From: Spirochaetaceae bacterium
Lineage (GTDB): Bacteria; Spirochaetota; Spirochaetia; DSM-2461
Assembly (NCBI GenBank): GCA_051531975.1
Contig: JAOPTT010000012.1
Coordinates: 95,783 to 159,782, forward strand
Length of the DNA: 64,000 nt
Reading direction: 5' to 3'
The notes beneath the pieces are model-generated. The model was not told where the DNA came from. It saw only the letters and a program-made list of their open reading frames with translations, and ran no database searches. Position 1 is the stretch's first letter; each line of letters begins with the position of its first letter. The position numbers were made by a program, and so were the translations under genes. Positions 2,659 to 52,713 of this stretch are shown here, piece by piece.

Positions 2659-2695
2659 AAAATAATTATAGGTTATTTTTTATAGCTTTTCAATA

Positions 2696-2724
2696 TTGAC
2701 GAACTTTTATTGTCTTAGTATAGT
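2696..2724 (+). promoter_or_regulatory. sigma70-type promoter
   Basis: TTGACG-17 bp-TATAGT, ending 6 nt before the leader-peptide ATG. Confidence 0.7.
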
Positions 2725-2730
2725 TTTTAT

Positions 2731-2808
2731 ATGGTTAAAACGTTTTTAGTACAGATTAATTTCTCAGCAGAAGCCACAACATTAGATGTTGCTGTGGTAG
2801 AGAATTAA
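2731..2808 (+). CDS. putative attenuator leader peptide (25 aa, MVKTFLVQINFSAEATTLDVAVVEN)
   Basis: Short ORF between the promoter and an intrinsic terminator; ends in a V-A-V-V cluster. Confidence 0.6.
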   Translation: MVKTFLVQINFSAEATTLDVAVVEN

Positions 2809-2830
2809 TTGTTTTAGTAGACGATAATTG

Positions 2831-2861
2831 AAGCCACAGTCAGATGACTGTGGCTTTTTTT
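2831..2861 (+). terminator. attenuator terminator hairpin upstream of aminotransferase
   Basis: AAGCCACAGTC-AGAT-GACTGTGGCTT followed by a T run. Confidence 0.85.
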
Positions 2862-2894
2862 ATACCAAGGATTCTGACTGAAAAGGAGATTTTT

Positions 2895-35918: not shown

Positions 35919-37322
35919 TTATAGTTTTTTCCTTTTGTATGGATTCATCACTGAAATTGCATCTTTAATTGAGTCTAACTCCCAGCCACCTAAAATTCCA
36001 AATCCTGGTGTATTATGGTGTTGTCTTGCCATATCTGCATGGGTTAAATATCCTTTTAAAATACGGGAACTACTTTGTAGATTGAACTTCTTTTTATTCT
36101 TTATATAGTAGTTTTTAAGTTGGTATTCTCCGTAGGCTTCAGTTAATACTGATCCATTACATACGTCGCACCCAGAGCAGAATTCTATGCTGGCACCTAA
36201 AAGAGATAACAGACCTTCTCGACGGCATTTTGTATTATCTCTTATTAGTTTTGTTATTGATGAATCTTTATCATTTTTTGATGTTAATAGTATAGCTTTT
36301 GCAGGATTTCTATCCCTTCCACCCCGGCCTGATTCCTGTAAATAGGACTCAATTGAATCAGGAGCTTCTAAGTGTATTACTGTTCTAATTCCTTGCTTGT
36401 CGACACCCATCCCATAAGCACATGTTGCGTTCAATATCCCACTATTACTATCAAAAAACCACTTTTCAATGTCACTCTTTTCCTCTTTTGTTAACCCAGC
36501 ATGATAATAAACAATATCATCCCTTTCTAAGCGTCTTGATAAAAATGTACTAGTTAATTCTGTACTAACTCTACTGCTATGAAATATAATAGCAGGTGTT
36601 TCAATGTTGTTAACCAGATGAACTAATGTCTCTTTTTTACTAATACAGGGTATAACAGAATAAGTAATATTAACCCTATCAGGATTTCCTCTGACAACAT
36701 TTGTATCCTCTCCTAGAAATATATATTTAATTACATTATCTACAATCCTCTGAGAGGCAGTTGCGGTATAGGCTGTAACCATCTCTACACCAATAGTTTT
36801 AATGTGTTCACCAACTTCTAAATAGGTAGGTCTAAAACTCTCTCCCCACTCGGAAACTGTATGGGTTTCATCAATTACTACGTGGTTTAAATTAGCTGAT
36901 GACAACAGCTCTAACACAACAGAGGTTCTAAGTGTTTCAGGGTTAGTTAATATAAATTTCACTTCATCGTTTTGTATCTTTTCATAAGCAATACTTTTTT
37001 CAGAGCTACTCATACCACCTTTTAAAATGGTAACTGTACTTCCTGTTTCTAATATTCTTCTCTCTTGATCTGCCATTAGAGAGAGAAGGGGGAATATAAT
37101 TAATGTAATGCCTTCCAACATAATCCCTGGTAACATAAAACATAGGGATTTCCCTGCACCAGTTGGCAGAAGAACTATCTGTCTTGGTATGGTTTCAAGT
37201 TTATCATCATCACCATAATAACCAGCTGCTCGAAGGGTGTTTGATATTACAAGTCTCTGAAATGGGAATATGTAGTCTATGTTAAATAGCTCTTTGGCTT
37301 TGTTATTAATAAAGTCTTCCAT
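35919..37322 (-). CDS. recQ: RecQ-family ATP-dependent DNA helicase (intact, 467 aa, no obvious HRDC)
   Basis: PTGAGKSLC, PLLSLM.DQ, DETH..SEWG..FRP.Y, YHAGL, AYGMGVDK, QESGRGGR, Zn-binding CRR..C..CD.C. Confidence 0.93.
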   Translation of the reverse strand: MEDFINNKAKELFNIDYIFPFQRLVISNTLRAAGYYGDDDKLETIPRQIVLLPTGAGKSLCFMLPGIMLEGITLIIFPLLSLMADQERRILETGSTVTILKGGMSSSEKSIAYEKIQNDEVKFILTNPETLRTSVVLELLSSANLNHVVIDETHTVSEWGESFRPTYLEVGEHIKTIGVEMVTAYTATASQRIVDNVIKYIFLGEDTNVVRGNPDRVNITYSVIPCISKKETLVHLVNNIETPAIIFHSSRVSTELTSTFLSRRLERDDIVYYHAGLTKEEKSDIEKWFFDSNSGILNATCAYGMGVDKQGIRTVIHLEAPDSIESYLQESGRGGRDRNPAKAILLTSKNDKDSSITKLIRDNTKCRREGLLSLLGASIEFCSGCDVCNGSVLTEAYGEYQLKNYYIKNKKKFNLQSSSRILKGYLTHADMARQHHNTPGFGILGGWELDSIKDAISVMNPYKRKKL

Positions 37323-37353
37323 AAAAGATAGATATGGATTTTTTTTGATTAAA

Positions 37354-37373
37354 TTCAGAATGAAAGAATATTT
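37354..37373. promoter_or_regulatory. conserved 20-bp motif at the upstream boundary of recQ copies (copy 1)
   Basis: TTCAGAATGAAAGAATATTT, identical at 40880-40899 and 47161-47180. Confidence 0.8.
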
Positions 37374-37428
37374 GGTAGATGAGAGTTTTAATAAAAGGTC
37401 TTTGTTTGAATTATGATATAATTTATCC

Positions 37429-37752
37429 ATGATAGTTGATTTGGATCTAATTAAAAAAGATATCACAGAAAAATTAAAAGTATTAAACCCAGATAAAATT
37501 ATTTTGTTTGGAAGCTATGTATATGGTACACCAACAGAAAATAGTGATCTTGATATCTGTGTCGTAGAAGATAAAATTGAATCCAAAATTGCGGAGAAAT
37601 CTAAAATACGAGCTTTAGTAAAAGATATTAGACTTCCTAAAGATATTATTGTCTCATATAAAGAAGAGTATGATTTTTATAAAACTGAAATAAATTCTGT
37701 ATTCTATGAAATTGATACTAAGGGTGATTTACTGTGGCAGAAAAATTCTTAA
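37429..37752 (+). CDS. minimal nucleotidyltransferase (MNT antitoxin)
   Basis: LFGS...G.....SDLD; overlaps the HEPN gene. Confidence 0.9.
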   Translation: MIVDLDLIKKDITEKLKVLNPDKIILFGSYVYGTPTENSDLDICVVEDKIESKIAEKSKIRALVKDIRLPKDIIVSYKEEYDFYKTEINSVFYEIDTKGDLLWQKNS

Positions 37753-38036
37753 AACAATATGAACTCTTACTAAAGAAAGCAAAGGTTGATTTAAAAGTAG
37801 CAAAAAATATCTTCAGGGATTTTATTGGAGGTGATGATGAGCTAGATTTAGAAGTTGTAATGTTTCATCTACAACAATCTACAGAGAAGACATTAAAATC
37901 AATTTTAGATTTCAATAAGATAAAGTTTCCAAGAACTCATGATATTGAAGTGTTAATAAATGTTGCTAAAGAGAATGATATAAATTATATTCTGCTTATC
38001 AACACCCATAGCGCGTACTATGGCTTTTTACGCTAA
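37734..38036 (+). pseudogene. HEPN toxin, probably C-terminally truncated
   Basis: FHLQQS.EK.LK, FPRTHDI; the last ~15 codons read through a recQ remnant and the IS end. Confidence 0.75.
37987..38009 (-). repeat. short recQ remnant immediately 3' of the motif V breakpoint
   Basis: Minus strand ATG GGT GTT GAT AAG CAG AAT AT (MGVDKQN..) vs intact ATG GGT GTC GAC AAG CAA. Confidence 0.65.
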
Positions 38037-39125
38037 TGTGGAAGATATACCTAAATAAAGACTGCCGATAATGAAATATGTTTAGTTTCATAACCACACT
38101 ACTCAATTCAATCTTTAAAATTTTATTCACAAAAAGAAAAGACCTAAAATTCACCTTAATGACATTGAAAAAGGAGAATCAGATCTATAAAAGACAATTA
38201 AATCATAAGAAAGCTCATAACTCCTTAAAAAGGAGAGATAGACTTTTCCTTACTCTGATTTTCAAGCTTTCCAGAAAAGCAACCGATCATTTGACTCTTG
38301 TTCAACCTTAGGCTCTTCTCGATTGATAGCGCAGATTCATTAAGAATTTCTGGAGTTACAAACATAAAACACCCGGCAGAAAGCCAGTGTCTAAAGATAT
38401 TAAAGAATTAATCCTGCAGATGAAACAGGAGAATCAACTTTGGGGATGTCATCGTATAGCTGATGAGCTGAAAAAGCTTGGTATCATACTAAATCCAACG
38501 ACTATAAATAGAATAATTCAGACTTTCAGAAGGGACGGGAAGATTCAGCCTATTGGAAGTTGGAAAAAGTTTCTTAAATCACACTGGGATTCATTATTCG
38601 GAATGGATTTTATGACTATAGACACCTTATTCGGTAAAAAATTCTACCTTCTAATCATCCTTGAACTGAAAACACGAAGGATAATCCGGTATGATTTGAC
38701 AGAAAATCCATCGCGAGAATTTGTGAAGCAAAGGATTGAGTTATTTTCTGAAGATTGTTCAGAGAAGAAGACGCTAATCTATGACAATGCACCTCAGTTT
38801 ACATCTATTGATTATAACTGGTATAACATCAAAGGAGTACATTGTTCTTACGCTCCTAAAATGAATGCTTATGTTGAAAGATTGAATGGAACAATTAGAA
38901 GAGAAGCTCTTGATCAATTTCTATTGTTTTCAGAGAAGCAAGTCCGGAAGTTCATAAAGGAGTACGTAGATTATTATAACTATCGACCTCCACATCAAGG
39001 AATTGAGAGTATTCCAGAGAGCTGCATATATCAAACCTCTGGAAATATAAAAAAACAACACATAAGCGGTTTACACCATCATTATTACAGGAGTAGTGCA
39101 TGAAAGTCAAAAAAGCCATAGCACG
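38014..39125 (+). mobile_element. IS-like element with rve/DDE transposase (IS481/IS3-like), defective
   Basis: Inverted repeats CGTACTATGGCTTTTT (38014-38029) and AAAAAGCCATAGCACG (39110-39125), 15/16 match; no target duplication seen. Confidence 0.8.
38078..39103 (+). pseudogene. integrase-core (rve) transposase with three in-frame stops
   Basis: ORFs 38078 and 38387 share a frame, separated by TAG, TGA and TAG at 38309-38329; EN..WG..RI..EL.KLG, DF.T, D..PQF, NAYVER.NGT.RRE. Confidence 0.85.
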
Positions 39126-39206
39126 GGTTTCTAGTTTATCATCATCACCATAAAAACTAGCAGCTCTTAGAGTATTTGATATTACAAGTCTCTGAAAAGG
39201 GAATAT
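39126..39206 (-). pseudogene. recQ: recQ 5' fragment abutting the IS end
   Basis: Encodes IFPFQRLVISNTLRAASFYGDDDKLET; matches intact 37190-37270. Confidence 0.9.
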
Positions 39207-39233
39207 TTAGCAAAATAGGAAAGTTCTACATAA

Positions 39234-39542
39234 CTAATTAAAGGACTTTGGATAATCAGTCGCACCATGGACAATTCTGTAAATAAAAATAGTTTGATCA
39301 ATAACTTTATAGATACAAATATAATCATTACAAACCAACTTTCTGTAGTCTTGCTTCTGTAGCAGTAAATCGGAATGTTTAGTTCCTGCATAGGGTTGGT
39401 TTTCAAGAATCTGTATTGTTTCAAGTAAGTTGTCAGTTATCAATTCAGCTGATTTGGGTCCAACCATTCTTAAATGAAATTCAGCTACTTTTTCAATATC
39501 TCTAATTGCAGGAGCTAGAAATTCAATTTTAAGCTTTGGCAC
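39234..39542 (-). CDS. RelE/ParE-family toxin
   Basis: A..D..., L...P..G, YRKLV...Y..IY, I.RIVHG..DY; overlaps the antitoxin. Confidence 0.88.
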   Translation of the reverse strand: MPKLKIEFLAPAIRDIEKVAEFHLRMVGPKSAELITDNLLETIQILENQPYAGTKHSDLLLQKQDYRKLVCNDYICIYKVIDQTIFIYRIVHGATDYPKSFN

Positions 39543-39813
39543 TAAAATATCTCTCTTTTAGACGGCTTTTCATCTCACTTATTGTAAATGTTTTTTCACC
39601 TGATAGTCGTGACAATTCAGCTTCCATTATTGCCTCACGATGCTTTAGTATTTTCTCCCGTTCTTCGAAAGCCTCAATACTCATGACAACTAAATCTCCT
39701 TCACCATTTTTGGTAATAAAGATTGCTTCATTAGTCTGATGAGCCAAAGAAGAGATACTTCCATAATCGTTTCTTAATGTTGTAGAAGATTTGATTTGCA
39801 TATTATTCTCCAA
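39529..39813 (-). CDS. Phd/YefM-family antitoxin
   Basis: LRNDY..IS, IFITKNGEGDLVVMSIEAFE. Confidence 0.9.
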   Translation of the reverse strand: MENNMQIKSSTTLRNDYGSISSLAHQTNEAIFITKNGEGDLVVMSIEAFEEREKILKHREAIMEAELSRLSGEKTFTISEMKSRLKERYFSAKA

Positions 39814-39900
39814 TTATAATATAATTCTACCTTTATTGTATCATTATTCTGCTATTCAAACAAATGGAATTGTAATATCGGATATATAATTGTGGAAATC

Positions 39901-39937
39901 TTTCATCTTTTAAACCTTACATAGTGTTTTACGCCAT
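39901..39937 (-). other. junction motif after truncated recQ copy 2 (putative recombination site)
   Basis: ATGGCGTAAAACACTATGTAAGGTTTAAAAGATGAAA, 28/37 identical to 46403-46439. Confidence 0.65.
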
Positions 39938-40848
39938 TCCGTAGGCACATGTCGCGTTCAATATCCCTGTATTACTATCAAAGAACCACTTTTCAATCTC
40001 AGTCTTCTCCTCTTTAGTTAGACCAGCATGGTAATAAATAATATTATCCCATTTTAATCTTCTTGATAAAAATGTACTACTTAATTCAGCACTTACTCTA
40101 CTTGAATGAAATATAATTGCAGGAGTTTCGATACTTTTAACCAAATGTACTAGTGTCTCTTTTTTACTAATACAGGGTATAACAGAATCAGTAATATTAA
40201 CCCTATCAGGATTTCCTCTAACAACATTTACACTCTGGTCTAAAAAAATATGTTTAATTACACTCTCTACAATATATTCTGAAGCTGTAGCTGTGTAGGC
40301 AGTGATTAGTTCTATACCCAATGTTTTAACATGTTCTCCAACTTCCAGATATGTTGGTCTGAAAATCTCTCTCCATTGAGAAACAGTATGAGTTTCATCA
40401 ATTACTACGTGATTAATAAAAGCCCCAGATAACAGTTCTAACACCACAGAGGTTCTAAGTGTTTCCGGATTAGTTAAAATAAACTTTACTTCACTGTTTT
40501 TTATCTTTTCATAAGCAATACTTTTTTCAGAGCTACTCATACCACCTTTTAAAATGGTAACTGTACTTCCTGTTTCTAATATTCTTCTTTCCTGATCTGC
40601 CATTAGGGAGAGTAGGGGGAATATGATTAGGGTTATGCCTTCTAACATGATCCCAGGTAACATAAAACAGAGGGATTTTCCTGCACCTGTTGGTAGTAAA
40701 ACTATCTGTCTTGGTATGGTTTCAAGTTTATCATCATCACCATAAAAACCTGCAGCCTACGGGTGTTTGATATTACAAGTCTCTGAAAAGGGAATATGTA
40801 GTCTATGTTAAATAGTTCTTTGGCTTTATTATTAATAAAGTCTTCCAT
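39929..40848 (-). pseudogene. recQ: recQ 5' copy 2, ATG to motif V (AYGMA*), 1-bp frameshift near 40758
   Basis: Colinear with intact 37322-36408 and one base shorter; upstream homology extends to 40900. Confidence 0.93.
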
Positions 40849-41120
40849 AAAAGATATATACTGTATTTCTATGAATAAATTCAGAATGAAAGAATATTTG
40901 TATCTTGATCATTTAGTCATTTTAAAAGTCTAGAAATTTGGGGGAATTCCAGTTCTACAACTCAATTAAATAAGTTATAGTTGGCATAGATTATATAATT
41001 ATTATTATAAAAATTTTGTATCATCCAAAATTAAACACACAAAATTTCTAAACAAACAGATCGGTTCATTATTATAAGCTGAATTTGACTTCTGCTCAAA
41101 TCACTAAATTTTTGTTCAAT

Positions 41121-44120
41121 TCAACTGTTCATTTTTAGAGTTTCACCTAAAACGTGACTAATTTCCGAGATAGTATATGGTTTATGTATAAAACTTGCTA
41201 AACCATTTCTTAATATTTCTTCAATATCCTCATTTTTGTTAAATCCCGATGATATTATAACCTTACAATTCTCATCTATTTCTTTCATCTTGTAAAATGC
41301 TTCTGTTCCACTAATTTTAGGCATTATCATATCCATTAAAACTATATCAATTTGTGAGTGTTTTATTTTAAAAATATCTATTGATTCTAATCCATCTTCC
41401 GCTAATAAAACCTTATATCCGAGAGACTCAAGAATGTCTTTACCCACAATTCTATTAATGTCTTCATCATCAACGAATAAGATTGTACCAGATCCAATTA
41501 AAATAGGACTTTGTTCTTTTTCTAATTTAATAGATGTCTGAGAACAAGGTATACTCATTGTAAATGTCGTACCAAAACCCACTTCACTATCAACTAAGAT
41601 CTCTCCTTCATGATCTACAATTGTTCCAAAAACAGCGGCTAATCCTAATCCTGTTCCCATCCCTTGTTCTTTTGTTGTGAAGAATGGATCGAATATTTTA
41701 TTAAGGATTTCAGATTGAATTCCAGTACCTGAATCACTTACACTGATTTTACAATATTTTCCAGGTTTAATATCAAAAGAACTTGTTTCACAATAAGATT
41801 GGTTTATGTCAATATCATCAGTAATAATATGAATCTCTCCTCCGCCGGTCATAGCATGACTAGCATTAATACACAAATTTAATAGAACATTTTGAAGTTT
41901 AGAACTATCTCCTAGAACATGGCAATTCTGTGCATTATTTTTATTGGAAATGACTATTTTTTTATCAATTGTATAATTAGTAATTGAAACTGTTTCTTCA
42001 ATAATCCTATGTAAATCTACAATATTTGAAGTTAAATTTTCTTTACGCCCAAATAAGAGAAGATTAGATATTGATTTAGCAGCTCGTTTGGATGCCTGTA
42101 ATATAATATTTACATACTTCTTATTCTTATCATCAAGATTTCTTTTGGGAGATAGAAGTAATTGAGCAGAACTCATTATTCCACTTAACATATTATTAAA
42201 ATCATGAGCCATTCCTCCAGCAAGTTGACCAAGAGCTTCCATTTTACTGTTATGGTAAATTTGTTTTTGTAATTTAGCTTTTTCATCTTCTGCACATTTC
42301 TGTTTTGTTATATTTTTTAATATTGCTAAATGTGTTGGATTTCCATTGTTTTTTGTATTGATAGGGGTAATCGTTAGTTCAATCCAGACAATGGAGCCAT
42401 TCTTGTGTATATACCGCTTAATCAGAGAAGACCTTGATCTCTGACCAAGAAGTAAAGGATTAATAATATCAAGAGTAGGTTTAATATCATCAGGATGAGT
42501 TAATTTAATCCAATCAAGTGATAGTAATTCTTCTTTTGTATAACCAATGATTTCTGATAATATTGTATTTACTTCTAATAATTGGCCTGTAATAGGATCA
42601 ATTAATGCTATTCCATATGGAGCTTGTTCAACCATATCTCTCAAACGGGCTTCACTTTCTTTTTGTTTTACTTCTGCTCTTTTACGCTTTGTAATATCAA
42701 TTGAAACAATCATTATATAATCCAAAATACCTTTATTATCACTAACCGGAATAATAGTTGAATGGAACCATAATTCTTTTCCATTAATATCAGAAGCTAA
42801 TGCTTCCAACGTAATAATATCAACTGTGTTTTTAGCTTTTTTTAGACTTGAAGTCATAGAATTTTGAAACGTTTCTGAAGAAAAATAGAAAGGATATGGC
42901 TTACCATAGTGATCTTCAATATTCTCTATATTCAAGCCATCTATCCCCGCACGACTCATATATTGTAAATTGAAATCTAAATCAACTATTTTTGTACATG
43001 CCGGCGAATTTTCGAGATAAGCCAAGTTCCTTTCCTCTGAGAATTTCAATTTTTCCTCAGCTTGTAAACGCTCATAAATCATAATATTTTTTTGACGTAT
43101 TATGCCTGAAATCACATATGCAATGCTTATATCCAGAAAAAATAAGAAGATTATTATAAAACGAATTTGAAAAAATATTTGACTCCACTTTATTTCTAAA
43201 TCTTCATATATAATTGTATTTAATAAAATCCAACTATTTTCTCGGTTATTAAGATTTTCTGAATATGGTCTAATTCGTATTGAAGTATAAATTACATTAT
43301 CTGCAACTATCTGATTTTGTTCTGAGTTTGATATATTCTCAAATAATTTAGGAGATTGAATATTAAAATTTATATCCTTTCTTTCTGAATACATAAATCC
43401 CCATTCTTTTTGAGAATTATTATCATATATCCAATATCCATCATTATTTAGAAGGGAAAATTTTCCTAATTCATCTATTGTTGCCCTTTGTAAATCATCT
43501 AATATTATATTTCCCAAATAATTGAAAATTATTATTCCTTTGTTTTTCATCGTTGTATTATAAACAGGTGTGCCGAATCGAATCATTGGCTTTATTGGTA
43601 ATTCAATTTTATTATTTTCAACATTGAGATCAAATGGTGAATTGTATACTTCATCAATACCAACTGAAATTGATTTAGAAAAATAATATCTGTCTTTTTT
43701 ATTTTGCAATTGAGACTTTTCAACAATAACTGGATGGCCATAATTATAATTTACCCTGACAATCTCATCTCCATTTTCATCAATATATCGGATTTGATCA
43801 TAAACTTTTTTACTTTTAATAAATTGAAGAAATTCATTTTCAATTTTTATTCTGTCAGATTCATTATGAGATTTTTGATAACTTAGAAAATCATTTATAT
43901 TGGGTAAAAAGAACAGATCAGATTGGATGGAATCAAGATGATTCATTATCAGTTCTTTTTGATATTCGATTTGATTCAGTGATGACTTTTTTGTAATTTC
44001 TATTTGACGATTTCTCTCAAGATTTTTAAAAAAAGTAATTGAAGAGAAAGATATTATAAATAGTATCAAAAAGAATATAACAAAAAACCTGAAACGAATT
44101 AAATCTATATTTTTTTTCAT
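41121..44120 (-). CDS. hybrid sensor histidine kinase (Cache-PAS-PAS-HisKA-HATPase-REC)
   Basis: GQLAGGMAHDFNN, NLCINA, DSGTG, PFFTTK..G.GTGLGL, C-terminal VDDE..DMIMP. Confidence 0.93.
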   Translation of the reverse strand: MKKNIDLIRFRFFVIFFLILFIISFSSITFFKNLERNRQIEITKKSSLNQIEYQKELIMNHLDSIQSDLFFLPNINDFLSYQKSHNESDRIKIENEFLQFIKSKKVYDQIRYIDENGDEIVRVNYNYGHPVIVEKSQLQNKKDRYYFSKSISVGIDEVYNSPFDLNVENNKIELPIKPMIRFGTPVYNTTMKNKGIIIFNYLGNIILDDLQRATIDELGKFSLLNNDGYWIYDNNSQKEWGFMYSERKDINFNIQSPKLFENISNSEQNQIVADNVIYTSIRIRPYSENLNNRENSWILLNTIIYEDLEIKWSQIFFQIRFIIIFLFFLDISIAYVISGIIRQKNIMIYERLQAEEKLKFSEERNLAYLENSPACTKIVDLDFNLQYMSRAGIDGLNIENIEDHYGKPYPFYFSSETFQNSMTSSLKKAKNTVDIITLEALASDINGKELWFHSTIIPVSDNKGILDYIMIVSIDITKRKRAEVKQKESEARLRDMVEQAPYGIALIDPITGQLLEVNTILSEIIGYTKEELLSLDWIKLTHPDDIKPTLDIINPLLLGQRSRSSLIKRYIHKNGSIVWIELTITPINTKNNGNPTHLAILKNITKQKCAEDEKAKLQKQIYHNSKMEALGQLAGGMAHDFNNMLSGIMSSAQLLLSPKRNLDDKNKKYVNIILQASKRAAKSISNLLLFGRKENLTSNIVDLHRIIEETVSITNYTIDKKIVISNKNNAQNCHVLGDSSKLQNVLLNLCINASHAMTGGGEIHIITDDIDINQSYCETSSFDIKPGKYCKISVSDSGTGIQSEILNKIFDPFFTTKEQGMGTGLGLAAVFGTIVDHEGEILVDSEVGFGTTFTMSIPCSQTSIKLEKEQSPILIGSGTILFVDDEDINRIVGKDILESLGYKVLLAEDGLESIDIFKIKHSQIDIVLMDMIMPKISGTEAFYKMKEIDENCKVIISSGFNKNEDIEEILRNGLASFIHKPYTISEISHVLGETLKMNS

Positions 44121-44727
44121 AACCAACTCTTTTCAAATTCAAATATATTTTGATTCTCATAAGAACTTAATGGCTCTATTACGCTTGAAATAATTATTAG
44201 TTTTTTCATATTATCTTCCTTTTTTGTATAACACTTTTTACACTACTACTAATTAAAATATGCTACTCCGGCCAAATATCATAAACAAAACCTATTGAAT
44301 CTGTTTGATATATAATTTCTCCAGAATAATAATACTAAAGCCAAATTGTGTAAGAGGAATTGTAAATTTCCCATCAGTTGTTATATTGTTAATATCTAAT
44401 ATTCCACAATAAGTTGGCTTTTTTATCAATTAATCTTAAGGTAAATATAATTTTATTTATATGAGAAAAAGTTATATATTTGGCTATTTAGTTATAGAAC
44501 TATGGATTTGTTAGTTTAGTAGCTATTAAAACCATCACAAACTCCCCCCAAATGGGGTTTTTCACAAAAATAATGGGACTGAAGTTTTAGAACCATATAG
44601 AGTTATTTTTAGAATCGTACTTTAAATTTAAAAGCAATATTGAGATGGTATCATAGTAATAATCTACTGTTTCTTAATGATGATTATTATGTTGAAATTG
44701 AAATAGCTGTATCACCTAGACGTTTCC

Positions 44728-45396
44728 TCAAATAATATAGCCAAAACCATGTACGTTTGATATTAGATATGTTGAAAATCCTGTATTAATTTTTTTTCGT
44801 AGATAACCGATATAAACTGTGACACTGTTAGTATCTACAGAATTATTAATATCCCAGACACTCTCCAGGATCTGCTGTTTACTGACTATTTGTCCATGAT
44901 TCTTCATCAAGAATTCTAGCAACAGAAATTCTTTTCTGGTCAGATATATCTGCTTCTCTGCCCGGTAAACTAATAAGGAAGTAGAGTTTAATACTAGATC
45001 ATCGACTACATAAATAGAGTCTGAACTCCCATCCGGTAACCATTTCCTCAATCTTGCTTTTATTCTGGCAGAGAGTTCCTCAATTTCATAGGGTTTAGTA
45101 ATATAATCATCTGCTCCAGCTTCCAGTCCCTCAACAATATCTGAAACATGGGATTTACCCGAAAGAAATATAATAGGGATCTGTGAGATCTTGCGAATAC
45201 GTCTGCAAACTTCCACCCCATTTAAATTCGGTAACATTATATCCATCAGTATCAGGTCAAAAGAGAAATTATTAAAGTTAGCAATAGCACTCCGTCCATT
45301 GTTAAAAATTTCAACTTCGTATCCATCATTAGTTAGTTCATCCTGTAATAAAAATGCATTGATTTGATCATCTTCTATAATCATTATTTTAGACAT
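44728..45396 (-). CDS. OmpR/PhoB-family response regulator
   Basis: IEDD, DIMLP..NG, GADDYITKP, LT.KEF.LLE.L, G.GY. Confidence 0.93.
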   Translation of the reverse strand: MSKIMIIEDDQINAFLLQDELTNDGYEVEIFNNGRSAIANFNNFSFDLILMDIMLPNLNGVEVCRRIRKISQIPIIFLSGKSHVSDIVEGLEAGADDYITKPYEIEELSARIKARLRKWLPDGSSDSIYVVDDLVLNSTSLLVYRAEKQIYLTRKEFLLLEFLMKNHGQIVSKQQILESVWDINNSVDTNSVTVYIGYLRKKINTGFSTYLISNVHGFGYII

Positions 45397-45440
45397 TGTA
45401 CATCCCTTCTTATGTAAACCTATTGTTTGCTACTTTAGAT

Positions 45441-46172
45441 TTAAAAAATATTTCTTTTTACTAGTCTCTTGTATATGTCGGGATATTCTCTTTTTACACA
45501 CTCAGAACACAAACTATGGCTTATTTCTGCACCTTGGTAATTATTAAGCATATAGGATTCAATATCCTCCCACTCATTATTTTTATTGCGAATTCTTTTA
45601 CAATAAGAACACATAGATAGAATCTTTTTCTGTTTAGACTCTTTTTTATCATTTAAAATTATAAGTTCTTGTTCTAATAATGTCATTTTTGAAATCAAAT
45701 CTAAAAGTAGAATATGTGATTTCATAATTACTGTTATTTGTTTGTTATCTATGACAATAGTGTTATTCATTTGAATTAAGAATTTTTTCAATTTATTACA
45801 TCTCTTCCCTTTTTTTTTCCGGAGTAAATCTCCATCTTGTGGTTTAATTAAAAATGCTTCAGATATTAGGTTACCAAAATATTGTTTGTCAATAACAATA
45901 GGGAATGAAAATTTAATAATATCATTACAACATGAACCTAAAGAACAATTACATTTTTTTTGCTTTTTTTCAGGCTTATATATAACATGTTTAGTACAAC
46001 ATATCGAAGATTTGTATTCATTCATTATAAAACCATTGCATGATTTTCTATTAATATTATCATTTTCCTTTATGTCTATAATTTCACATGAGATTTTAGA
46101 AATATTTTCGAAATTACTTTTCAGCATTGGGAGAAAATTGGATTTTATATTTTCCAAAATAACAGTATTCAT
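45441..46172 (-). CDS. PocR-like sensor domain protein with C-terminal Cys/His motif
   Basis: Cys-rich N-terminus and FSFPIVID; C-terminal CSYCKRIR....W..IE.Y......ISHSLC..C. Confidence 0.6.
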   Translation of the reverse strand: MNTVILENIKSNFLPMLKSNFENISKISCEIIDIKENDNINRKSCNGFIMNEYKSSICCTKHVIYKPEKKQKKCNCSLGSCCNDIIKFSFPIVIDKQYFGNLISEAFLIKPQDGDLLRKKKGKRCNKLKKFLIQMNNTIVIDNKQITVIMKSHILLLDLISKMTLLEQELIILNDKKESKQKKILSMCSYCKRIRNKNNEWEDIESYMLNNYQGAEISHSLCSECVKREYPDIYKRLVKRNIF

Positions 46173-46402
46173 TATTCATCCTTATAATAGTCTTTTTAAT
46201 TAATAGTCATTTTTTAAATACTCACCAAATTAGCTAATCTAATTTAGCAATAGTTTATTTCATTTAAATCTTATTTCTTAATTTCATAAAAAATTAAATT
46301 CTAATTCAATTTAAAATGTTAAAGGGGAGAAATAAAGATTTAAGTATAAAATTATATTAATTTAATAAGAATTAATTTGGATGGCCTCATTATAGAACAA
46401 TT

Positions 46403-46439
46403 TTTCACTGTTTAAACTATATATCGTGATTTAGGCCAT
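46403..46439 (-). other. junction motif after truncated recQ copy 3
   Basis: ATGGCCTAAATCACGATATATAGTTTAAACAGTGAAA. Confidence 0.65.
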
Positions 46440-47129
46440 ACCATATGCACAAGTTGCATTCAATATCCCTGTATCACTATCAAAAAACCACTTCTCTATT
46501 TCAGTTTTTTCCTCTTTAGTTAATCCAGCATGGTAATAAATAATATCATCTCTTACTAACCTTCTAGCTAAAAATGTACTAGTTAATTCTGTACTTACTC
46601 TACTTGAGTGAAAGATAATTGCAGGTGTTTCTATATTTTTAACAAGATGAACTAATGTCTTTTTTTTATTAATACAGGGAATAACGGAATAATTATTATT
46701 AACCCTATCAGGATTTCCTCTGACAACATTTGTATCCTCCCCTAAAATATATATTTAATAACATTATCTACAATTCTCTGGGAGGCAGTTGCGGTATAGG
46801 CTGTAACCATCTCCACACCAATAGTTTTAATATGTTCCCCAACTTCTAAATAGGTAGGTCTAAAACTCTCTCCCCATTCTGATACAGTGTGGGTTTCATC
46901 AATTACTACGTGGTTAATAAAAGCCCCAGATAACAGTTCTAACACCACAGAGGGATTTTCCTGCACCTGTTGGTAGTAAAACTATCTGTCTTGGTATGGT
47001 TTCAAGTTTATCATCATCACCATAAAAACCTGCAGCCCTAAGGGTGTTTGATATTACAAGTCTCTGAAATGGGAATATGTAGTCTATGTTAAATAGTTCT
47101 TTTGCTTTGCCATTAATAAAGTCTTCCAT
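46431..47129 (-). pseudogene. recQ: recQ 5' copy 3, ATG to motif V (AYGMA*), 221-bp internal deletion plus frameshift
   Basis: Explains ORFs 46914-47186 and 46742-46966; deletion junction ACAGAGG at 46947-46953; upstream homology to 47180. Confidence 0.93.
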
Positions 47130-47450
47130 AAAAGATATATATGGTGTTTCTATGAATAACTTCAGAATGAAAGAATATTTAAGCATTTGTCAAAAAGATA
47201 TGGTGTTGAAATTATTATAGAAGCTGTAGAGCAAAAAGAAGGTGGTTTTAGATAAATATGGAAAAATATTCTGTTACTGCACTTACATCCATAAATAGTA
47301 AGATAGAATACTATCCATTTACAGTAAAATCCAGTATATTTTACCTAGGGTTATGTTCATAATATGGAAGTATATCAGGAACAGTACTGTTTTCATTTAC
47401 GAAGTTCGTTTTAATAAGATCGGAACTGGAAAATTTGAATAATTTACACC

Positions 47451-49667
47451 ATGGTTAAGAATTTAGATGTTGCTACTATTAAGGGGAATTCCATTAGAAA
47501 AGAAGCGTTTCATTTAATCCTGATTGTTTTTCTCTTTCTATTTTCTGCAAGTAATATAACTGCTGCTCCAGAAATACAGCCCCCGATAGCTATTGAAGGT
47601 GTTATCGATCTGCAGAACTATAACTTTGAAAAAGACGGCTCCATCAATCTTTCCGGTCAATGGAACTTTTTCTGGAGTGAGTTGCTTAATCCTGATCAAC
47701 TCACTGATTACAGCAATTCAATATATGTTTCTGTCCCTGATAAATGGACCAATTATCAAATAGATAACGTAAATATCACTGCCAAAGGATGGGCTACTTA
47801 CTCCTTGAATATGCTTGTTCCCGATGACAATCAGATATATGGAATCTACATTAAAAGTGAGGGGAGTGCTTATAAGCTTTGGATTGACGGACAGCTTATG
47901 GCTTATGGCGGACAGCTAGGCACTTCTTTAAAAACTGAAACCCCAAACATAGGGCCAGTCAGGGTTTTCTTTGAACCGGAAAATGATAAAGTCGAAATCG
48001 TTGTTCAAATATCAAACTATCACCACCGAAAAGCAGGGTTTCGGAATGCGTTTTTACTAGGTTTAGCGGAACCTGTTCATCAACAAATGCAGAACTGGAT
48101 TGTGGCAGCCATCTCAATTGCGATCTTTTTTATAATGGGTCTATATCATCTATTTTTATTTATATTCCAGACCAGGGATAAATCACCCCTATACTTTGCC
48201 ATTATATGCTGGTTATTAACTGTTCGAGGAATAGCTATAAATAAGATTATTTTGCTTTATTTCATCCCTTCCATGAGCTGGACTTTAGCTTTTAGGCTGG
48301 AATACCTGACATTTTTTATAATTCCTTTACTATTCACACTGTTCATGCGAAGTTTGTATCCAAAAGAGCTAAATCCCTGGTTTATGCGAATTATAATTGG
48401 AATTGTCTGCTCATTTTCACTGTTTTTACTATTCACAAGTACAATAACATTAAGTTACGCGGCACCTTACTTTCAATACTTTATCCTAGGTACTATTATA
48501 TATTGGTTATTTTTTCTTGTTAGAATTCTAATCCATCGCCGTGAGGGAGCTTACTACATTGCATTAGCTTCATTTTTGCTGTTTATTACTGTAATTATGG
48601 AAACATTGTATTTTAGAGATGTAGTCAATCTGGGACATGTCACAACTTTGGGATTTCTTGCCTTTATTTTTGTTCAGGCAATATTGTTGTCATTTCGTTT
48701 TTCCAAATCGTTTACCAGAGTAGAAAGCTTATCTGTCGAGTTAAAAGAAACAAATATCAATCTGGAACATAGTGAAAAAAAATATCGTAATATCTTCAAC
48801 GATTCCAAAGATGTTATTTTTATTACAACAATGGATACAACCATTGAAGATATCAGCCCCTCCTGCAAAGAAATTCTTGGTTATACAAAAGAAGAATTAA
48901 TTGATAAGAAAGTTGAAGATATCATGGTTAATCCAGCTGAGATATCCTTATACATTGAAAAAATCAGGGAAAAGAAGTCGATAAAGAATATTGAGGTATA
49001 TGTTCAAAAAAAGGATGGTAAAGACATAAGTACACTTGTCAGTGTTAGTTATCGCCAAGATGAAAAGGGTACGATAATTGGAGTTCAAGGTACTCTGCAT
49101 GATCTCTCTGCTATAAAAGAAGCCGAAGCTGAACGGTTGAATGCACAAAAACTCGAACAAATCTCAATAACTGATCCTCTGACAGGAATATACAACCGCC
49201 GATATTTATTCCAGGAAGCCGAAAAAGAGATAGACCGTGCCAAACGACAAGATGAGCCGCTGACAGTTATCTTTTTTGATATTGATCACTTTAAGATAAT
49301 TAATGATACCTACGGACATCTAATCGGTGACCAAATTCTAATCGGTCTTACTGCCTTGTGTCAGAAACATATTAGAAATATCGATATTTTGACCAGGTTT
49401 GGGGGTGAAGAATTTGTTATATTAATGCCTGCTACAGATATCAACTCAGCTGAGATGACTGCTGAACGATTACGGAAGATAGTCTCTGAAACCCCGCTTA
49501 CAAAATTTAAATCTAAAGAAATATCTATAACTATTAGTTTGGGTATTGCTCTTTGGAAGCAATCTAATTCTTTAGACTTTAATGAATTGTTGGAACAAGC
49601 TGACAATGCACTATATCAGTCTAAAGAGGGCGGAAGAAATCAAGTTACTATTTTCTCTGAAGGATAA
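47451..49667 (+). CDS. 7TM-DISM/PAS diguanylate cyclase
   Basis: L.G.W.F.W..L sensor domain, 7TM region, PAS, TDPLTG.YNRR, GGEEF. Confidence 0.9.
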   Translation: MVKNLDVATIKGNSIRKEAFHLILIVFLFLFSASNITAAPEIQPPIAIEGVIDLQNYNFEKDGSINLSGQWNFFWSELLNPDQLTDYSNSIYVSVPDKWTNYQIDNVNITAKGWATYSLNMLVPDDNQIYGIYIKSEGSAYKLWIDGQLMAYGGQLGTSLKTETPNIGPVRVFFEPENDKVEIVVQISNYHHRKAGFRNAFLLGLAEPVHQQMQNWIVAAISIAIFFIMGLYHLFLFIFQTRDKSPLYFAIICWLLTVRGIAINKIILLYFIPSMSWTLAFRLEYLTFFIIPLLFTLFMRSLYPKELNPWFMRIIIGIVCSFSLFLLFTSTITLSYAAPYFQYFILGTIIYWLFFLVRILIHRREGAYYIALASFLLFITVIMETLYFRDVVNLGHVTTLGFLAFIFVQAILLSFRFSKSFTRVESLSVELKETNINLEHSEKKYRNIFNDSKDVIFITTMDTTIEDISPSCKEILGYTKEELIDKKVEDIMVNPAEISLYIEKIREKKSIKNIEVYVQKKDGKDISTLVSVSYRQDEKGTIIGVQGTLHDLSAIKEAEAERLNAQKLEQISITDPLTGIYNRRYLFQEAEKEIDRAKRQDEPLTVIFFDIDHFKIINDTYGHLIGDQILIGLTALCQKHIRNIDILTRFGGEEFVILMPATDINSAEMTAERLRKIVSETPLTKFKSKEISITISLGIALWKQSNSLDFNELLEQADNALYQSKEGGRNQVTIFSEG

Positions 49668-49697
49668 GTTTTAAAAGGAAGATAAATCAAGCCTATG

Positions 49698-49930
49698 GGT
49701 GTACTATAGTTTTTACCAAATCTACCAATGTCTCTTTTTTACTAATGCAAGGTATACAGAGTACCTAATATTATTCCTATCAGGATTTCACTGCTCTAGT
49801 AGGCATTCAAACTATCTTTCTTGGTATGTTTTCAAGTTTATCATCATCAAAATAAAAACCTGAAGCTCTATGGGTGTTCGCTATTACAAGTCCATGGAGT
49901 GGGAATATGTAGTCTATGTTAAATAGTTCT
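49698..49930 (-). pseudogene. recQ: highly decayed recQ 5' copy 4 with a large internal deletion
   Basis: 49698-49789 resembles intact ~36594-36688, joined to a match of intact ~37146-37292 (e.g. gggaatatgtagtctatgttaaatag). Confidence 0.85.
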
Positions 49931-50089
49931 ATATGGTCTAACTAGACATATTTTGCTTGCTAATTGGTATTCCAAACTACTCAAATCTATTTTCCAGTTG
50001 GTAGATAGATAAAAATAACAAATAATTTCTGTTCAAGTTAATTAAATATAACATCTATTTCTTAATTTACTAAAAGATTATATAGATAT

Positions 50090-50584
50090 TTACTCAATTA
50101 CAGTAATTTCTACAGTGTAGTATTTAGATTTTAAATTAGGGAAAAAAGAGACAGATTCATGATTATCTAATCTAACATCAAGTGTAGTTGTAACATTCTC
50201 TGTGAAATGATACGAACTAATATCAACATAACCAGCATCATTATAATTTTGTAAGCTAGGTATATCCTCTGAGTTTAAGTATTGTACATATTCTTCGTCT
50301 TCAATATAAAGTGATAAATAGACACCACTTATACTTAATAGAAACCACGTTTCAGAGTCTAAAACACTTTTATCAACTACAATTTCATAATTTTTATCAT
50401 CAATATATGTTGCAATTAGGTTTATGGATTCATCTGGTGAAGATAAAGTAATACTCTCTATACTTAACTCTCCATAATTAGGGTCATTAGTATTAGGAGT
50501 ATCTGTACCTATTCCAGAGATCATAAAACAGCTAGTGAGGTATAATATAAATACTATTAAAATTATATACTTTATATTTTTCAT
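50090..50584 (-). CDS. putative lipoprotein
   Basis: Signal peptide with LTSC lipobox. Confidence 0.7.
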   Translation of the reverse strand: MKNIKYIILIVFILYLTSCFMISGIGTDTPNTNDPNYGELSIESITLSSPDESINLIATYIDDKNYEIVVDKSVLDSETWFLLSISGVYLSLYIEDEEYVQYLNSEDIPSLQNYNDAGYVDISSYHFTENVTTTLDVRLDNHESVSFFPNLKSKYYTVEITVIE

Positions 50585-50586
50585 TA

Positions 50587-52479
50587 TTAATCCTTTACAA
50601 TTGCATTTAATAGATTAAATCTCAAAGAAAGAGCATCTTTTTCTAATACTAAATCAAAGTTTAATACACTCTTCTTAAAAAAGTAATAAGATAAAGCTGC
50701 AAAAGCAGCAGTAGGTATCGCAAGATCTAGTATTAAAGCACTATCGAGAGGGCTATACAGTGAATCAGTAATATCCATAGGTGTTGTAGCGTCATGATAA
50801 TCATCTTTTATCAACGCATTATTAATAGCAACAGCTGTAGCTAGAGCTCCAGTAAGAACTGCCCCACTTAAAAAAGTATAACCTGTTATATTATAAATAA
50901 ATTTATCTCTTTTTGCAATCTTTATAGGTTCTTCAATTTCAAATAATCTATTTTCAATAATATTTAGCTCATAGGATATTGTATGTTTAACATCAGTTAC
51001 TAATATTTTACTCTCTAGATCTGGAAATATCTCAACTAGTTTATAAAATGTATTCTCAGCTTCATTTTTATATCTACCAGTTAATAACCAACTACCCCTT
51101 GGAAGCTCATTATATCCCTCTACCAATTCGTATTGTAAATCTGTAAAATTTTCAGGATTATCCAATATTTTTGTAGGGTAATAAAATTGATCATCACTAT
51201 TTTTATCTATTAGCAGAATGTCTTTATTATCTTCAAAGAAGAAGGACTCTCTACCAGGTTTTATTTTTTTTGCCATAAATTCAACATTGTTATATAGTGG
51301 TTCCGCTGTTTCAAAGTTAATAGAGCCAATAGTAGATATTGGTCCCAAATTCTTTAATAATTCTTCAATTTTGAGTCTTTCTTTTTCAACTAAAAGTAAG
51401 GCTGATTTAGCTTCTTCTGATAACTTTTGGGCTTCTAGAATTGAGCTTTCAGCTCTCTGTTCAGCTTTCAGTTTGCTTTCTAAAGCTATTTCTAAAGCCT
51501 TTTCAGCTTCAGCTTTATCTAATTTACTACTCTCTAGAAGCACTGAATTTGCTAATTCAATAGCTTCTTTAGCTAACTCGATATTTTGTAACAGTGCAGC
51601 CGTTTTTAGTGCCTCTATTCCTATTGCAATAGATGCAGCTTCAGCTACTTGTTCAGCAAATTTTTTATCTTCTTCAGCTTGTATTAGTTTTGCTCGTGCT
51701 TCTCGAATTTTTGATGAAACTAAATAAAAGCTTGATGATAGACTAGCACTAATCCATGGTATCTGATTATTATTTGTTGTTTTTTTTACACTTAATGTAA
51801 CTGATCTAAACATATCCTCTAGTTTTTCACTATTATCTATATACTTTAGAAATGAAGTTGTAAATACTCCGTTTCTGCCGTTTCCATCTAAAGCAACATC
51901 TCCTGGGGAAGTTGCAAAAATTATAGCTGATCCAATATCTCCACCCGAAACTTGAACAACAGATAGACCTCGAGATTTAGAAGAGCTTCTTGATGCTACT
52001 TTGGCAAAGGGATTATCTCTACATGCATCTAATATCAATAGACTCATATCTGGTTTTATTATATTAAAAACTTCGGAGATATAGCTTAAACTAACTGCAT
52101 CTAACTTAACATCATCGACTGTTTCAAGTTTTGTTTTAATAGGCAGTAAATAGTTTTCTCCATCAATTTGCATTCCGTGTCCTGCGTAGTAGATAAGAAC
52201 TGAAGGATTCTCATAATCCATAGCTACATTTTTAAAGTTTGTAATTGATTTTAACATATTTCGTCTATCTGCATCTAAAACTAGGGTAACATCCCAACCA
52301 ATAGATTCTAACTTCTCAGATATATCAATAGCATCATTAACTGGGTTTTTTAATTTGGCCGACCCTGAATAATCAGCATTACCAATAACCAATGCCAGTC
52401 TATTTTCTTCTTGTGAATAAATCGAAAACATAATGAAATTAATACACAAAAGGACTAGTGTTTTTTTAATGTTTATCAT
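50587..52479 (-). CDS. caspase-like (Peptidase C14) protein with signal peptide, coiled coil and C-terminal TM segments
   Basis: ALVIGN..Y, L.NPVNDA, YYAGHG, ILDACR.NP, A.DG.GRNG.FT, Q.PW. Confidence 0.9.
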   Translation of the reverse strand: MINIKKTLVLLCINFIMFSIYSQEENRLALVIGNADYSGSAKLKNPVNDAIDISEKLESIGWDVTLVLDADRRNMLKSITNFKNVAMDYENPSVLIYYAGHGMQIDGENYLLPIKTKLETVDDVKLDAVSLSYISEVFNIIKPDMSLLILDACRDNPFAKVASRSSSKSRGLSVVQVSGGDIGSAIIFATSPGDVALDGNGRNGVFTTSFLKYIDNSEKLEDMFRSVTLSVKKTTNNNQIPWISASLSSSFYLVSSKIREARAKLIQAEEDKKFAEQVAEAASIAIGIEALKTAALLQNIELAKEAIELANSVLLESSKLDKAEAEKALEIALESKLKAEQRAESSILEAQKLSEEAKSALLLVEKERLKIEELLKNLGPISTIGSINFETAEPLYNNVEFMAKKIKPGRESFFFEDNKDILLIDKNSDDQFYYPTKILDNPENFTDLQYELVEGYNELPRGSWLLTGRYKNEAENTFYKLVEIFPDLESKILVTDVKHTISYELNIIENRLFEIEEPIKIAKRDKFIYNITGYTFLSGAVLTGALATAVAINNALIKDDYHDATTPMDITDSLYSPLDSALILDLAIPTAAFAALSYYFFKKSVLNFDLVLEKDALSLRFNLLNAIVKD

Positions 52480-52713
52480 AACTGTTTATATAATAAATTA
52501 TAATTATTTTCAATACAATTATTTTTTGTAGAATTTAAAATAAGATACAGTGAGATTTTCATATAAAATAATCTATAGGAAACTGTTCTTAACCACCAGA
52601 TCATCCTCTTATTTGATTATGGAAATAATTCACTATTTTAATTCTATATAGTTAAATACACCATATCCTAGGCACAGAGGATCCTAAGTGTTTCTGGATT
52701 AGTTAGATGAAAA

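Follow-up and report, generated by a model that had tools for sequence, protein, structure and literature searches.

Several serine-integrase elements split the host gene that they enter, as A118 does in comK, SPbeta in spsM, and skin in sigK. Elements of the staphylococcal cassette chromosome (SCC) type use the last codons of their target gene and duplicate about 15-20 bp with each cassette. The Ccr enzymes of such elements are described as mobilizing tandem cassettes that have no recombinase of their own (PMC11470126), and dusA-specific integrases are described as the tyrosine integrases of target-restoring islands (PMC4482086). Here we analyze a 64,000-nucleotide stretch (the window) of contig C12 in G000, the draft genome (5.46 Mb, 29 contigs, AT-rich) of a Spirochaetaceae bacterium. 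In it, about five recombinase-less cassettes stand head to tail upstream of a single intact RecQ-family helicase gene (recQ), each associated with a truncated or eroded copy of the 5' part of that gene. Copies that retain their junction break off at one point in helicase motif V and run into a shared sequence. This sequence is probably the P' arm of an attL-type junction, and one mobile family would integrate site specifically at the ATGG of recQ motif V. Integration at the motif V codons of RecQ-family helicases would then extend to at least four families of one class and to two RecQ paralogs, and these codons would be a new conserved target; the literature searched, which covered few subscription journals, contained no paper describing integration into recQ. 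Below, coordinates without a contig prefix are window positions, C1, C6, C17, etc., are contigs of G000, and G003, G005, G022, G025, G059, etc., are labels of comparison genomes.

The locus is best described as a serine-recombinase cassette array that uses a new target, duplicates 1 kb to restore it, and has no recombinase of its own. It shares with the SCC, SCCmec, and ECC elements (CcrAB or CcrC, with rlmH as target) a serine-recombinase target inside a conserved housekeeping gene that stays intact, a tandem arrangement of cassettes, many of them recombinase-less, and internal junctions that look like joined circle ends. As in SCC-type arrays, the tandem cassettes are bounded by site repeats next to an intact target, here with three junctions, five recQ remnants, and one intact gene. 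It differs from them in having no Ccr protein (the recombinases found beside recQ in G025 and G059 score far below the Ccr cut-off) and, in G000, no such recombinase at all. Moreover, since the recQ target lies in mid-gene, about 0.97 kb of 5' gene and promoter is duplicated with each cassette. The gene-splitting serine elements have their counterpart in G025 and G059, where the gene is split at one codon, with a recombinase at the junction, inverted-repeat arms, and a restorable frame, whereas in G000, G022, and G005 the gene is unsplit, a spare 5' part comes with the insert, and the old 5' part has become a pseudogene. Integron arrays likewise consist of short cassettes, each of one to a few genes and without a recombinase, with a conserved recombination site between them. 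Here, however, there is no IntI (no PF00589 match in C12), the site is not of the folded attC type, and copies of a gene anchor the array within that gene. The outcome is unusual in that the host gene is neither split nor lightly patched; about 1 kb is resupplied with each cassette, which leaves a readable stack of arrivals.

The break in recQ and the arm that follows it

All junctions and recQ units of the array are on the minus strand, with the one intact recQ at its downstream end. The recQ 5' units of the window are numbered U0 to U5, U2 being copy 2 and U3 copy 3. P' denotes the arm after the recQ break, P the second arm found at the attP-like sites discussed below, and core the ATGG-type sequence.

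35919..37322, minus strand: intact RecQ-family helicase gene, 467 aa from the ATG at 37322, with DEAD, Helicase_C, and RecQ_Zn_bind domains (Pfam)
36407-36416, minus strand: putative attB core TATGGGATGG, inside the intact gene
36407..37374, minus strand: U0, the 968-bp repeated unit within the intact gene, comprising 52 bp 5' of the ATG and codons 1-306 and ending in ATGG
39126..39210, minus strand: U1, an 85-bp recQ 5' remnant that has lost its junction (blastn, 88% identity to intact 37191-37275)
39934..40900, minus strand: U2 (copy 2), a truncated recQ 5' copy with 85.5% identity to the intact gene over 968 bp and with one TAG and one TAA stop
46436..47180, minus strand: U3 (copy 3), a truncated recQ 5' copy with 88-91% identity to the intact gene; an internal deletion of codons ~110-181 joins 46953 to 46947
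49712..49930, minus strand: U4, two joined recQ 5' remnants without a junction (blastn, 83-84% identity to codons 59-108 and 260-286)
52661..52712, minus strand: U5, a recQ 5' remnant of ~50 bp in which codons ~170-183 are joined straight to the last codons before the break
39887..39937, minus strand: copy 2 junction, with the ATGG core at 39934-39937 and then the 47-bp P' arm at 39933-39887
46389..46439, minus strand: copy 3 junction, with the ATGG core at 46436-46439 and then the P' arm at 46435-46389
52614..52664, minus strand: third window junction, with the ATGG core at 52661-52664 and then the P' arm at 52660-52614

Codon numbers for the deletions and remnants in U3, U4, and U5 are counted from the GTG at 37466. 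Domains of window genes were assigned with Pfam and in some cases with NCBIfam. The intact gene scores 236 bits with the NCBIfam model recQ_fam (cut-off, 220) and has an ortholog in 39 of 41 related genomes; its 3' part beyond the break occurs once in G000 (blastn, whole genome).

At 36407-36416 (minus strand) the intact gene reads TAT GGG ATG G/GT GTC GAC, where the slash marks the point at which the truncated copies depart from it, in the ATGG of the Tyr-Gly-Met-Gly codons of motif V. A whole-genome blastn search found four truncated copies that end at the identical query base (window 39934, window 46436, C17:55038, and C6:152637). A fifth, heavily deleted copy (window 52661-52712) ends in ...GGATATGG and is followed by the same kind of arm. 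Five truncated 5' copies with a junction are thus present, three in the window and two on other contigs. The three long units (U0, U2, and U3) share both this end base and their first base, which lies 52 bp upstream of the start codon (37374/37373 in U0, 40900 in U2, and 47180 in U3). A first-pass annotation of this DNA had described two copies that break at the same codon and had quoted their junctions, which read as stated: TAC GGA ATG G/CG TAA for copy 2 (39934-39943) and TAT GGT ATG G/CC TAA for copy 3 (46436-46445). The common break stands, while the number of copies was too low, given the five with a junction and the remnants at 39126-39210 and 49712-49930. The sole public run with this DNA is probably its source, and contigs assembled separately from it span the three window junctions with 0 differences. 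The deletions in U3 (46947-46953) and U5 (52661-52690) each have one end at the same CTCTGT, at codon ~183, which suggests repeated slippage or recombination at a short repeat.

The shared sequence itself, given earlier as 33 bp long, is real and extends to about 47 bp. Aligned without gaps from the base after ATGG, copies 2 and 3 agree at 24 of the first 33 positions, as had been reported, and at 28 of the first 47. When 200,000 pairs of 33-mers were drawn at random from the window, 5 had as many as 24 matches. The cargo beyond these 47 bp is indeed unrelated, with 38 matches in the following 100 bases. The arm is present after all five junction-bearing copies. At the third window junction it is visible in the sequence and obtains E = 2.6e-9 in a covariance-model search, although the profile search (nhmmer) gives only E = 1.3. 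The in-frame stop one codon after the break, pointed out before in copies 2 and 3, is found as TAA in five G000 arms (copy 2, copy 3, C17, C6:167729, and C6:658734); elsewhere, a TAA follows after two codons in G022 and a TAG after one codon in G005. Such an early stop may be a plain consequence of the GTAA in the arm, or a prompt end to the truncated protein may have been selected for.

A profile of the arm built from copies 2, 3, and C17 recovers its three sources and, at E = 1.3, the third window junction. It also matches two sites that are free of recQ, C6:167725 (E = 1e-4) and C6:658738 (E = 2e-3). At both, the arm is preceded by GGTATGG and a second, non-recQ sequence that is homologous between the two over ~90 nt. 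A profile of this left arm (P) gave three more sites with E values of 0.02-0.05; at C6:161414 and C17:51415 the P arm continues into a P'-like arm at the same AT, whereas at C6:189654 it does not. P' thus has two kinds of partner at one and the same point, recQ coding sequence at five sites and a P arm at four, and the four recQ-free sites appear, from their arrangement, to be attP-like (P-core-P'). Beside the recQ copies of the window, the P profile found no match at any left boundary; its best window match (E = 7) falls within the copy 2 P' arm. Inspection by eye had suggested a stretch resembling the P arm upstream of copy 2, which was dropped, as the P profile has no match there.

These sites bear directly on the reading of the arm as a functionless flank that spread by segmental duplication after a single ancestral truncation, which we regard as very unlikely. 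The left and right boundaries common to all units would suit such an origin, as would the gene conversion that shows the copies to interact and the restriction of the exact arm to G000 among the 38 family genomes searched. Against it, the arm stands at four recQ-free sites, joined at the same point to another conserved arm, and the left arms of these sites, 70-90 nt long, are homologous to each other and not to recQ and so do not suggest decayed recQ copies. Without gaps, the copy 2 arm matches that of the attP-like site C6:167729 at 39 of 46 positions, compared with 30-37 of 46 for the other truncated copies (30 of 46 for copy 3). This speaks against one truncation followed by duplication, which the first-pass annotation had named, along with a lack of the motif in other truncated recQ copies of relatives, as the finding that would overturn its own view. 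The cargo is wholly different from 47 bp onward, and the same junction codon recurs in G022, G005, G025, and G059. The recQ-free sites alone already largely refute the duplication scenario. The first-pass view of a conserved cassette end, by contrast, is borne out by the arm after all five copies, at the four recQ-free sites, and, in related form, in four other genomes.

The surroundings of the attP-like sites are as follows. C6:161414 and C6:167729 are directly oriented P-core-P' sites that flank a single gene, encoding an 1853-aa hybrid sensor kinase, and the arrangement resembles a lone cassette with an attachment site on either side. On C17, a P-core-P' site is followed 3.6 kb downstream by a recQ fragment with P'; the four genes in between are co-oriented, and there is no recQ gene there. 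Around C6:658734 (C6:648000-667999) are genes for DUF5906/AAA, Abi_2, and DUF2971 proteins and several open reading frames (ORFs) without a family match; this region may be what is left of a mobile element, or it may be a defence island. The distal half of P' (window 46389-46416, minus strand) holds TTTAAA, a 16-nt gap, and TATAAT in copy 3, with CATAAT or CACAAT at the corresponding columns of other arms, a motif that could serve the cargo as a promoter directed inward. In a scan for promoters and terminators the counts did not differ from those of shuffles, and Rfam and tRNA scans of the array gave no matches.

recQ loci in other genomes

Elements with their own recombinase interrupt recQ at the same codon in two genomes. 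In G025, the recQ 5' part extends to codon 306, where its final ...GGTATGGGA gives way to an arm containing CTTATGTTAAAT; the cargo beyond is ApeA-like and phospholipase D-like. The recQ 3' part is on another contig, and an inverted copy of this 12-mer, CTTATGTTAAAT, stands before it. The gene for a 561-aa protein with Resolvase (2e-28) and Recombinase (9e-19) domains starts ~50 nt from the core. In G059, a genome assembled as a single contig, ~27 kb separates the recQ 5' and 3' parts. Its 607-aa homolog of the G025 recombinase (34% identity, E = 7e-98) is encoded by a gene that begins 45 nt from the junction, and genes for ParA- and ParB-like proteins come next. The two arms have inverted sequence in common, an identical 12-mer in G025 and an identical 9-mer and 6-mer in G059. 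Only ATGG(G) is common to the two ends, and the joined halves read F/Y-G-M-G-V-D-K in frame. To judge from their sequence, these are classical gene-splitting large-serine-recombinase elements that target the very codon at which the window copies break. CcrB is the best NCBIfam model for both recombinases, at 101 and 103 bits against a cut-off of 900; with scores so far below the cut-off, they are not Ccr proteins.

Homologs of these recombinases are rare. At E<=1e-30 they occur in 4 of 301 genomes of the class sample (G025, G059, G298, and G273), and only those of G025 and G059 abut recQ. In the phylum sample the recombinase was found in 1 of 401 genomes, the query's own, and a scan of public genome contigs likewise returned only the query's own locus. 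Two loci came from a metagenome scan, and recQ is not near either of them. When viral contigs were scanned with a degenerate pattern of the arm, one match resulted, which has no core and which we take to be due to chance.

A truncated copy beside an intact gene, as in the window, is found in two other genera of the G000 family. In G022, a copy of codons 3-307 breaks off at the same codon. The arm behind it contains TTTATGT and GTTTAAT, and between this arm and the intact gene lies 6.5 kb of cargo (a radical SAM enzyme, a sensor kinase, a response regulator, and a GGDEF-PEP enzyme); there is no recombinase. In G005 it is the canonical RecQ paralog that shows the same break, a related arm, and a truncated copy beside the intact gene. 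Contig C122 of that genome (locus 2350-4000, minus strand) carries three tandem 5' copies, the third of them eroded, and ~57 bp lies between the motif V break and the next unit; this interval is like a nearly empty cassette. Eroded 5' fragments are located 16 kb and 38 kb upstream of the intact genes in G003 and G019, and G011 has a 47-codon recQ fragment ~3 kb upstream. Synteny with G001, G003, G006, G011, G019, and G010 showed recQ alone to be conserved, and these relatives are too diverged for an empty site to be defined.

A related arm thus follows the same codon in four genomes besides G000 (G022, G005, G025, and G059), and in all lineages a TTATGT-type element lies 13-15 nt from the core or crossover. 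For the A118 integrase, a distal motif bound by the zinc ribbon is reported at positions 16-24 of the attP half-site (PMC3783163), slightly farther out than this element.

Assembly of the array

An intact element, as in G025 and G059, splits recQ and carries a large serine recombinase gene at its far end, beside P, with P an inverted repeat of P'. A G000 cassette consists of the P' arm, the cargo, and the promoter region and first 306 codons of recQ. Each arrival would displace the previous recQ 5' part and supply a new one, leaving recQ whole, and the displaced part would become a truncated copy that ends in ATGG and P', usually with a stop within 1-3 codons. From such steps an order of arrivals may be inferred. 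For the insertion step, either a recombinase would act on an attL-type site and attB, or a circular cassette would enter by one homologous crossover in its 0.97-kb segment of recQ. We favor the view that the G000 junctions were made by a serine recombinase, supplied in trans or present at an earlier time, because attP x attP recombination is reported for the A118 integrase and for CcrA/CcrB (PMC3783163) and because Ccr moves tandem recombinase-less cassettes. In three lineages (G000, G022, and G005) the copy begins just upstream of the start codon, which speaks against a purely homologous route.

Several observations weigh against site-specific integration by such an enzyme. Large serine recombinases as a rule join attP to attB, or attL to attR with the help of a directionality factor. 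We know of no reaction between an attL-type site and attB, and the G000 array would need either this reaction or attP x attP. Most serine integrases are described as acting only on attP x attB (PMC3783163). No large serine recombinase was found in G000, where PF07508 has no match and the best tblastn match with both recombinases has an E value of 0.35; remnants of a serine recombinase were not found in G000 either, and a PF07508 match is present in only 3 of the 38 genomes of the family. One of these matches, the recombinase of G308, is unrelated and has neither recQ nor comM nearby. The link between recombinase and recQ comes from two genomes of other families, whose arms have only a short sub-motif in common with the G000 arm. 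The motif scan proposed in the first-pass annotation did yield further sites in G000, but the G000 arm model found nothing at E<=0.01 in 37 other family genomes (150 candidates scored per genome). The blastn search of G000 showed no attR, a P arm joined to the recQ 3' part. The core common to all sites is short (AT to ATGG) and so does not fix the crossover dinucleotide within ATGG. The inverted symmetry of the G000 attP-like sites appears modest as well: at one site it is 21 of 28, a value attained by 25 of 2,000 shuffles, and at the other the score is attained by 1,849 of 2,000. Finally, contigs of the public run that align to the array revealed no excised or circular form, such contigs being blind to rare forms.

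The same junctions could be kept while the array grew by homology alone. A circle with a recQ 5' part, ATGG, P', and cargo would enter by a Campbell-type crossover, the first such circle having come from aberrant excision or from looping out between two recQ copies. We consider this possible, though doubtful. It yields exactly the observed topology of truncated copy, cargo, and intact gene and calls for no recombinase, which fits the absence of one. It also agrees with the distribution of identity among the copies. Identity is 97-100% between U2 and U3 in alignment columns 200-290 and 500-550, 90-97% between U0 and U3 in columns 550-750, and 96-100% between U0 and U2 in columns 350-450, while near the break all three are about equally distant (82-90%). 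Such mosaicism means that homologous exchange among the copies is active; to judge by the identity patterns, gene conversion has made mosaics of the recQ copies. The two copies of G022 differ at 14 positions over 926 bp (98.5% identity), 11 of them in the first 44 bases and 3 in the last 880, and their upstream regions are unrelated. However, mosaicism would arise equally from later gene conversion, and homology alone explains neither the origin of the first circle nor the start of the copies just 5' of the start codon in G000, G022, and G005. Nor does it account for the C17 recQ fragment with P' near a P-core-P' site, which has no recQ gene to pair with, or for the single kinase gene between two P-core-P' sites on C6.

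The recombinases that G000 does encode bring two further candidates into consideration. Two small resolvase genes (C1:53119 and C10:276754) are not near any site. PF00589 has four matches above the cut-off, none of them in C12 and, outside C17, none within 60 kb of a site. Two of these tyrosine recombinase genes are Xer-like and lie on C17, among closely spaced ORFs of the same strand, 13-16 kb from the nearest site; the other two are non-Xer integrase genes (C8:31783 and C6:592885), which come no closer than 66 kb to any site.

A target-restoring island with a tyrosine integrase, its attP carrying part of the target gene as at tRNA genes and dusA, would produce much of what is seen. Tandem islands typically combine a displaced partial copy with cargo, a restored gene, and attP-like junctions between units; in them the element likewise replaces the displaced part of the target, and arrays of partial copies mark successive arrivals. 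G000 also has the two non-Xer integrase genes. Nevertheless, we think such an island very unlikely. The only recombinases found adjoining a junction are serine recombinases, there is no integrase in or beside the array, and the nearer of the two integrase genes is 66 kb from any site. In two attP-like sites the identity common to all sites is shorter than the usual overlap of 6-8 bp, and the restored part is ~1 kb long here as opposed to tens of bases. The enzyme class, which differs as well, is inferred in the case of the array.

The first-pass annotation had instead compared the copy 2 arm with the XerC/XerD binding sites at dif. Elements that depend on Xer at dif do resemble the array in being recombinase-less, in that they would rely on a host enzyme, in their tandem arrangement at one site, and in a short likeness to the right arm of dif: the arm contains TATGTA/TTATGT, and the 11-mer TTATGTTAAAT of G025 is identical to the dif right arm as quoted. 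The Xer-like genes on C17 might be adduced in support, although, as described, they sit among closely spaced ORFs at a distance from the sites. The comparison fails on the position of the break. The recQ homology stops at ATGG, the outer edge of the proposed left arm and 11-17 nt from the proposed spacer, where Xer exchange would occur, so that a Xer/dif site does not fit; that left arm would be recQ coding sequence, the target too is coding sequence and not dif, and the spacer would be 7 bp long, as against 6 bp between the two 11-bp arms of a dif-type site. Furthermore, the junction gene in G025 and G059 encodes a serine and not a tyrosine recombinase. A search of G000 with a loose dif-like pattern gave 10 scattered matches, none of which stood out. 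Cassettes that depend on Xer and a dif-like site are, in our opinion, extremely improbable.

Returning to integration by a serine recombinase, a more far-reaching form of this reading, which is speculative and rather improbable, would make recQ a platform of new design. Cassettes would use the complete recQ promoter and the first 306 codons as their right attachment arm, and a distant CcrB-like recombinase in trans would join attL-type and P-core-P' sites to the motif V core. Each insertion would rebuild recQ, and the displaced promoter would drive the new cargo through the P' stop, much as in integrons, with comM (see below) as a second platform. If it is true that a serine recombinase handles attL-type sites or attP x attP, the known rules of a family used in genome engineering would be widened. 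Integration of cassettes at recQ would also explain the build-up of signalling and toxin-antitoxin genes at one locus in these large marine genomes.

Cargo of the window and a second array at comM

The cargo genes of the window, with families assigned by Pfam, are as follows.

37429-37752, plus strand: nucleotidyltransferase (NTP_transf_2)
37734-38036, plus strand: HEPN protein (HEPN)
38387-39103, plus strand: IS3-type transposase remnant (rve_3/rve)
39234-39542, minus strand: ParE toxin
39529-39813, minus strand: Phd/YefM antitoxin
41121-44126, minus strand: hybrid sensor kinase
44728-45396, minus strand: response regulator
45441-46172, minus strand: PocR-domain protein
47451..49667, plus strand: membrane-bound diguanylate cyclase with 7TMR-DISM, PAS, and GGDEF domains
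50090-50584, minus strand: 164-aa protein without a family match
50587-52479, minus strand: caspase-domain protein (Peptidase_C14; the NCBIfam caspase domain scores below its cut-off)

Read along the minus strand from 52712 to 35919, the array begins with U5 and its P' arm, the caspase-domain protein and the 164-aa protein, U4, the GGDEF cyclase on the opposite strand, and U3 with its P' arm. It continues with the PocR-domain protein, response regulator, and hybrid kinase, U2 with its P' arm, the Phd/ParE pair, and U1, and it ends with the IS3 remnant, HEPN protein, and nucleotidyltransferase, all on the opposite strand, followed by U0, which is continuous with the recQ 3' part. From this order, each unit consists of P', cargo, and a recQ 5' copy. 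The cargo is co-oriented with the site in three of the five window blocks, or in four of six when the C17 block is added. In the public run, one weak joint connects 41945 to 52008, with 21 letters on the short side, between two kinase-rich stretches; we attribute it to a repeat or to a different organism.

A second array of the same design is located at comM (C6:150725-182567). The intact comM (C6:150725-152239; 504 aa) is followed downstream by comM 3' fragments at C6 156984-157844, 167825-168522, 171416-171510, 172573-173267, and 182517-182567, and in this array it is the 3' part that is resupplied. Two of the fragments begin at the same codon (~204-220) and are preceded by a similar arm, with 25 of 44 matches. 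The attP-like site C6:167729 directly abuts the arm that precedes a comM fragment. In addition, a repeat of ~100-230 bp lies 90-315 bp downstream of the comM stop and recurs in five other places with 75-89% identity (C6:153995-154224, C6:155452-155576, C1:219508-219733, C2:631635-631737, and C9:328898-329080); it may be a small non-autonomous repeat element.

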